Below are positions 55,963 through 56,095 of a stretch of DNA of 64,000 nucleotides, one piece after another. Positions within the stretch are counted from its first letter, which is position 1. The number at the start of each line of letters is the position of its first letter. Both the position numbers and the translations under genes were made by a program. The DNA comes from Escherichia coli (GTDB lineage: Bacteria; Pseudomonadota; Gammaproteobacteria; Enterobacterales; Enterobacteriaceae). The stretch lies in NCBI RefSeq assembly GCF_030013595.1, contig NZ_CP122768.1. One strand, given 5' to 3'. The notes under the pieces were generated by a model. It saw nothing but the letters and a program-made list of their open reading frames with translations, did not search any database and was not told where the DNA came from.

Positions 55963-55996
55963 GATGCTCCCCCAAATATGAAATCTCTTGCAGGCA

Positions 55997-56013
55997 TTAC
56001 AAGAATCATGCCA
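55997..56013 (-). promoter_or_regulatory. Candidate sigma-54 promoter of pspG
   Basis: Minus-strand TGGCATgattcTTGTA about 35 nt upstream of the pspG ATG; -24 GG is canonical, -12 is GT rather than GC. Confidence 0.4.
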
Positions 56014-56095
56014 AAAATAATCTGTTGATTTAACAGCAAAACGCCCCGCGACGGTGCGCAGGGCGTGGTGAATTTGACTACTTTTTGGTGAAAAG

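Follow-up and report, generated by a model that had tools for sequence, protein, structure and literature searches.

The dusA-pspG intergenic region of Escherichia coli: a very probable sigma-54/PspF-dependent promoter with a conserved T at -12

The 133-bp region between dusA and pspG in Escherichia coli very probably carries the sigma-54 (RpoN)/PspF-dependent promoter of pspG, a gene that forms the second transcription unit in the phage-shock (PspF) regulon. The element is the orthologue of K-12 pspGp, to which it is essentially identical, and is already known: descriptions of the pspG promoter date back to 2004, and in K-12 sigma-54 binds this very sequence in vivo. Sequence identity, conservation in blocks and spacing were computed here; sigma-54 occupancy and PspF dependence come from the literature; and we infer the bases contacted by PspF, the start site and any role of the T at -12. 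The window, which is the whole stretch of DNA that was analysed, is 64,000 nucleotides long (assembly GCF_030013595.1, contig NZ_CP122768.1), and all positions refer to it. The features of the region are, from upstream to downstream:

56096..57139, minus strand: dusA (tRNA-dihydrouridine synthase A), as a mechanical open reading frame; the K-12 annotation of 1038 nt would place the start at ~57133
56098-56096, minus strand: dusA stop codon TAA, from the sequence
56095-55963, minus strand: dusA-pspG intergenic region, 133 bp, from the sequence
56086..56092, minus strand: conserved half-site TTCACCA (TTCRCYA, then AAAA), from conserved columns 20-29 of 46-species alignment A2
56066..56080, minus strand: probable PspF upstream activating sequence (UAS) TAGTCAAATTCACCA, an imperfect palindrome T-N-GT-N7-ACCA at -93 to -79, from likeness to pspA and conservation
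56037..56066, minus strand: dusA intrinsic terminator with a 10-bp GC-rich stem, 6-nt loop and TTTT tail, between the enhancer and the IHF site, from a terminator scan
56018..56030, minus strand: IHF consensus AATCAACAGATTA (WATCAA-N4-TTR) at -43 to -31, a perfect consensus match
55998..56014, minus strand: sigma-54 core promoter, 17-mer TTGGCATGATTCTTGTA, from K-12 identity, ChIP-seq motif OS40 and weight-matrix rank 1
56012-56011, minus strand: GG at -25/-24, within TGGCAT at 56013-56008
56000-55999, minus strand: GT at -13/-12, within TTGTA
55987, minus strand: predicted transcription start, G, from motif geometry, 12 nt past -12 and 25 nt before the ATG
55967..55973, minus strand: Shine-Dalgarno sequence GGGGGAG, 4 nt before the ATG, from the sequence; K-12 has GGGAGAG
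55720..55962, minus strand: pspG coding sequence, 80 aa plus stop, from the open reading frame and its translation; RefSeq 'envelope stress response protein PspG'

The core of the promoter occurs once in the window: a motif search finds a single copy of TGGCATGATTCTTGTA, on the minus strand at 56013-55998. The pspG ATG occupies 55962-55960 and is separated from this motif by exactly 35 nt (55997-55963), which bears out the initial annotation of a -24/-12 motif about 35 nt before the gene; the span given for that feature, 55963-56095, is exactly the intergenic region. TGGCAT-GATTC-TTGTA fits TGGCAY-N5-TTGYW exactly, with the fixed 10-nt spacing from GG to G. The GG and the G of GT occupy their canonical positions, and the proposal that spacing and -24 element suit sigma-54 is correct; TGGCAT is a TGGCAY -24 element as in sigma-54 promoters generally. 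The -12 dinucleotide had also been read correctly: the GC expected at -13/-12 within TTGCW is replaced by GT, and the G at -13 and the preceding TT are kept.

A bare consensus match is insignificant alone. TGGCAY-N5-TTGYW is expected 0.45 times per window and is matched at least once in 33 of 100 shuffles, and the stricter TGGCAY-N5-TTGCW with one mismatch allowed gives 6 matches in the window against 6.6 expected. That chance level is the first point in favour of a different account, in which most pspG transcription comes from dusA read-through or a sigma-70 promoter and the motif is a chance occurrence or a non-productive sigma-54 site. A weight matrix separates the site from the background far better, which counts against that account. 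The matrix was built from 39 published K-12 intergenic sigma-54 sites, with pspG, pspA and fdhF omitted, and it places the pspG 17-mer first of 127,968 positions on both window strands, at 16.8 bits; with C at -12 the site would score 21.3 bits. Rank 2 in the window is the known fdhF promoter at 18477-18493 on the plus strand. Matrix rank, position, orientation and cross-species conservation together put the pspG motif far beyond chance.

The fdhF 17-mer at 18477-18493 (+), GTGGCATAAAAGATGCA, is identical to the published fdhF sigma-54 motif (Bonocora 2015, OS41) and serves as an internal positive control. The next four 17-mers score 13.8-14.7 bits and lie at 23225-23241 (-), 51530-51546 (-), 16790-16806 (-) and 45917-45933 (+). 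None of these four was found in the searched text and tables of the K-12 ChIP-seq paper, and each is probably a chance match or a weak site inside a gene.

Alignment with K-12 MG1655, the check that had been suggested for this promoter, shows that the 17-mer is identical, GT at -12 included, and that the 133-bp intergenic region has only three differences, none at a conserved position. These are at 56024, in the N4 spacer of the IHF site; at 55992, around -5; and at 55970, in the Shine-Dalgarno sequence. Apart from these single-base differences, the K-12 promoter (pspGp; yjbO; OS40) has the same core, UAS, terminator and IHF consensus positions, the same gene order dusA-pspG-pspH-qorA and a predicted start 25 nt before the ATG.

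Published evidence for the identical K-12 site supports the regulon membership proposed for pspG, in the form of a ChIP-seq peak, up-regulation and a PspF UAS. Sigma-54 ChIP-seq lists this 17-mer as site OS40 in Table 1, with pspG as the downstream gene, a fold above threshold (FAT) of 15, a predicted start 25 nt before pspG and flag 'C', which marks experimental confirmation in EcoCyc (Bonocora et al. 2015, PMC4591121). The start predicted here at 55987 agrees with the 'Distance 25' of that entry. Many sigma-54 binding sites may never give transcripts (Bonocora 2015, PMC4591121), which again lends some weight to a non-productive site; against this, overexpression of sigma-54 in K-12 up-regulated only five genes that have an upstream intergenic site, pspG being one of them, and its activation was credited to PspF (Bonocora 2015, PMC4591121). 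In Salmonella LT2, ChIP-chip places sigma-54 at TGGCATGATTTTTGTAAG for pspG and at TGGCACGCAAATTGTATT for pspA (Samuels et al. 2013, PMC3844500). The pspA and pspG promoters both have UASs to which PspF binds: two at pspA, with ~100-fold induction, and one at pspG, with ~20-fold induction (Mehta et al. 2013, PMC3709507). Papers that cite Lloyd et al. (2004) describe K-12 pspG as induced by secretin and membrane stress, PspF-dependent and antagonised by PspA.

The absence of C at -12 is the remaining sequence feature that favours a chance or non-productive motif, and the initial annotation treated the call as tentative for this reason. The caution was reasonable, but the deviation proves to be without consequence for the assignment, as GT is also found in pspA, in Salmonella pspG and pspA and in nearly all pspG promoters compared here. 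Those pspG loci come from 80 Enterobacterales species in genera that include Escherichia, Citrobacter, Salmonella, Enterobacter, Klebsiella, Raoultella, Kluyvera, Leclercia, Lelliottia, Trabulsiella, Pluralibacter, Yersinia, Rahnella, Brenneria and Biostraticola; counts refer to 81 sequences, namely the window plus these 80 species. A -24/-12 element lies upstream of pspG in 80 of 80 species, which argues against a chance match. The -24 element is TGGCAY (TGGCAT or TGGCAC) in 80 of the 81 sequences, and the -12 element is TTGTA in 76 (the window included), TTGAA in three, TTGGA in one and TTGCT in one. Across 46 aligned species TGGCAY-G-N-TT-Y-TTGTA is kept, and in the 80-sequence profile conservation falls off a few bases beyond TTGTAA. 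Of 5426 complete E. coli genomes, 5398 have an exact copy of AGATTATTTTTGGCATGATTCTTGTAATGCC, the 31-mer that surrounds the core.

Three exceptions among these species deserve mention. Citrobacter werkmanii NBRC 105721 (L027:1855-1971) has TGTCAT at -24 and is the sole case among the 80 species in which an invariant G is lost; either a natural mutation that lowers pspG expression or a sequencing error could account for it. Salmonella enterica subsp. diarizonae has the only canonical GC at -12 (TTGCT) among the 80 species. In this subspecies and in S. enterica subsp. arizonae (loci L033 and L016, respectively) the promoter-to-ATG distance is ~68-69 nt (35 nt in E. coli), and the longer pspG leader contains a GC-rich palindrome, CCCGGTAAGCGC...GCCGGG.

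The same base is found at -12 elsewhere in the regulon. The K-12 pspA promoter, TTGGCACGCAAATTGTA, also has TTGTA, and GT at -12 of pspA is conserved across species (Huvet et al. 2011). Among the 42 intergenic sense sigma-54 sites of K-12 (Bonocora Table 1), 37 have GC and three have GT (pspA, pspG and ygeW), and hydN and glnH are single cases of GA and TC, respectively. Since GT occurs in bound sites, at K-12 pspA, pspG and ygeW and at Salmonella pspA and pspG, sigma-54 promoters strongly prefer C at -12 (37 of 42 sites) but do not absolutely require it. Compared with canonical sigma-54 promoters (TGGCAC-N5-TTGCW; glnAp2, nifH, fdhF), the pspG promoter has the same GG at -24, G at -13, 11-bp register, T-rich spacer end TTG and upstream enhancer with an IHF bend, and differs in having T for C at -12. 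For annotation, GT at -12 is no ground to reject a sigma-54 call, as both PspF-regulon promoters carry it.

The T at -12 of PspF-regulon promoters is conserved and tolerated and is not a defect. Whether it is a selected signature of these promoters, rather than something only tolerated, we consider evenly balanced; the distribution at pspG, with T in 76 sequences, A or G in four and the consensus C in only one, together with the same T at pspA, is what suggests selection. The C at -12 is conserved in 96% of sigma-54 promoters and restrains basal transcription (Schaefer et al. 2015, PMC4551910), and it assists Region I of sigma-54 in locking the closed complex and in limiting basal transcription (Wang and Gralla, as cited by Schaefer 2015, PMC4551910). 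Given that role in locking the closed complex, a base other than C could set the basal PspA/PspG level needed by the PspA-PspF negative feedback. Alternatively, it could tune the response to PspF, which is an unusual, constitutively active, domain-less activator. A role of the T in setting basal expression is plausible but unproven. Activator-independent 'bypass' transcription permitted by the non-consensus -12 was considered and rejected as the main reading, as no clear bypass of the activator was seen at pspA, whose -12 element is likewise TTGTA (Schaefer 2015, PMC4551910). The breadth of -12 T conservation at pspG goes slightly beyond the literature covered and is an incremental result; a testable hypothesis from the cross-species data is that selection maintains the T and that it determines the basal or induced expression level of the phage-shock regulon.

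Four conserved features parted by variable sequence emerge from the 46-species alignment A2 and the 80-sequence profile. The initial annotation proposed a search for PspF and IHF sites 80-130 bp upstream; candidates for both are present, but closer than supposed, with the enhancer at -93 to -79 and the IHF site at -43 to -31. The 15-mer at 56080-56066 is probably the PspF UAS. Among 46 species its T, G, T, C and A never change, the cross-species consensus is TGGTCAAATTCACCA, and the pattern TNRTNNAWTTCRCYA is common to it and to two 15-mers upstream of K-12 pspA, TGATGAAATTCGCCA and TAGTGTAATTCGCTA, which lie 20 bp apart. Published coordinates of the PspF UAS were not found in the literature searched, so the assignment rests on this likeness to the pspA 15-mers and on conservation; the pattern was derived after the sites had been seen, and its match statistics are descriptive only. 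Other matches to the pattern at 2940-2954 (+) and 22147-22161 (-) lack a sigma-54 motif at a suitable position and are regarded as chance matches.

The conserved TTCACCA begins 3 nt past the dusA stop codon; the corresponding half of the UAS follows 20 bp further downstream, the register also seen between the two pspA 15-mers. This half-site is possibly auxiliary to the single UAS. A half-site, and not a second full 15-mer, at this distance fits the count of one pspG UAS in the literature (Mehta 2013, PMC3709507).

The pspA (pspABCDE) promoter is closely related in its arrangement: it is sigma-54 dependent, PspF activated and IHF assisted and has TTGTA at -12 and 15-mers of the same type. It differs in having two full 15-mers, at about -126 to -112 and -106 to -92, where pspG has one plus a half-site, and its best IHF-like match is at -60 to -48, compared with -43 to -31 in pspG. 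The neighbours overlapped by the enhancers differ as well: at pspA it is the promoter of the divergent pspF, and at pspG it is the end of dusA, whose terminator the enhancer flanks. The pspF gene itself is absent from the window.

Between the enhancer and the core lies a perfect-consensus IHF site, as expected of a PspF-regulon promoter. In the cross-species alignment ATCAA always has its CA and TTR its T and A, and the N4 is free to vary. Measured to TGGCA, the start of the site is 17-18 nt upstream in 74 of 80 species; in five outliers this distance is 27-28 nt. The gap between the 15-mer and TGGCA is also constrained, at 52-53 bp in 74 of the 80 species, despite changes of the hairpin sequence inside it. 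It is 54 bp in Entomohabitans, 60-62 bp in Biostraticola and Brenneria and 74 bp in Yersinia and Rahnella; the long spacing in these last four genera (five species) corresponds to about one or two extra helical turns, and the IHF site is shifted by 10 bp in the same five. Constrained spacing with increments of roughly whole turns is what looped enhancer-promoter contact with a face-of-helix requirement would predict.

The segment inside this putative loop also holds the dusA terminator. Its hairpin (56066-56041, followed by a T run) folds at -19.1 kcal/mol with z = -2.4. In 46 species 89.8% of the alignment cells are paired, compared with 39-49% in slid controls, compensatory changes occur in nine of ten stem pairs and none of 500 shuffles reaches the observed values. 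Base 56066 belongs both to the stem, as its first base, and to the PspF-like 15-mer, as its last. A promoter scan found no sigma-70-like promoter on the pspG strand of the intergenic region. The terminator is predicted to make pspG transcription independent of dusA, and placing one gene's terminator within the DNA loop of the next gene's enhancer-dependent promoter is a compact arrangement. A dusA terminator inside the enhancer-IHF loop at a near-invariant 52-53 bp is slightly beyond the literature covered and likewise incremental.

These results bear directly on transcription of pspG by dusA read-through or from a sigma-70 promoter. A covariation-backed terminator separates the two genes, no sigma-70-like promoter was found on the pspG strand between them and the motif is kept in 80 species with constrained enhancer and IHF spacing; with the matrix rank and the overexpression response described above, they make this account very improbable, despite the expected frequency of the loose consensus, the abundance of potentially silent sigma-54 sites and the missing C. 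Slightly less probable still is a real promoter whose upstream blocks are dusA 3'-end or terminator elements (for stability or termination efficiency) and not PspF/IHF sites: the UAS-like 15-mer does abut the terminator stem and share a base with it, and the half-site does start just past the dusA stop, but the stem varies by compensation while the 15-mer is conserved in sequence, the same 15-mer pattern occurs twice upstream of pspA with no dusA there, the IHF block is a classic WATCAA-N4-TTR with free N4, Yersinia, Rahnella and Brenneria keep 15-mer and IHF site despite a spacing wider by ~10 or 21 bp, and PspF binds a pspG UAS (Mehta 2013, PMC3709507).

For the sigma-54/PspF-dependent promoter, a mechanism can be proposed by analogy with the characterized K-12 promoter. 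RNA polymerase-sigma-54 would form a stable closed complex on the core at 56014-55998. The enhancer-binding ATPase PspF would occupy the palindromic 56080-56066, ~86 bp upstream, possibly helped by the half-site at 56092-56086. IHF at 56030-56018 would bend the ~50 bp between them and bring PspF into contact with sigma-54, and ATP hydrolysis by PspF would then convert the closed to the open complex, with transcription from about 55987. In unstressed cells PspA would keep PspF inactive, and the dusA terminator in the looped segment would block read-through, leaving pspG expression dependent on the enhancer. Lloyd et al. (2004, J Biol Chem 279:55707) reportedly found pspG expression to depend on sigma-54, PspF and IHF and to be negatively controlled by PspA.

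The PspG protein is 100% identical to that of E. coli PspG loci, and the gene downstream of the promoter is thus a psp gene. A 701-bp query across dusA-pspG finds a match of 95-100% identity in 5425 of 5426 complete E. coli genomes, where the matched stretch is annotated as dusA and pspG. For 55700-56400, identity is at least 99% in only 5 of 5427 matching records and 95-99% in nearly all others, with pig isolate HCP5S3_I2 the best match; so few close matches place the window in a comparatively uncommon lineage of E. coli. Scanning 55300-56400 against Rfam gave nothing above threshold; below threshold, two weak ctRNA_p42d matches (E = 0.1-0.2) fall on a bidirectional terminator at ~55551-55594. 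A homologue of the K-12 small RNA PspH (b4758) lies just downstream of pspG on the minus strand, at ~55553-55663, and ends at this bidirectional terminator (hairpin 55562-55584), which is common to the convergent qorA. PspH overlaps the pspG 3' UTR, sponges the small RNA Spf and possibly has its own promoter (Melamed et al. 2016).
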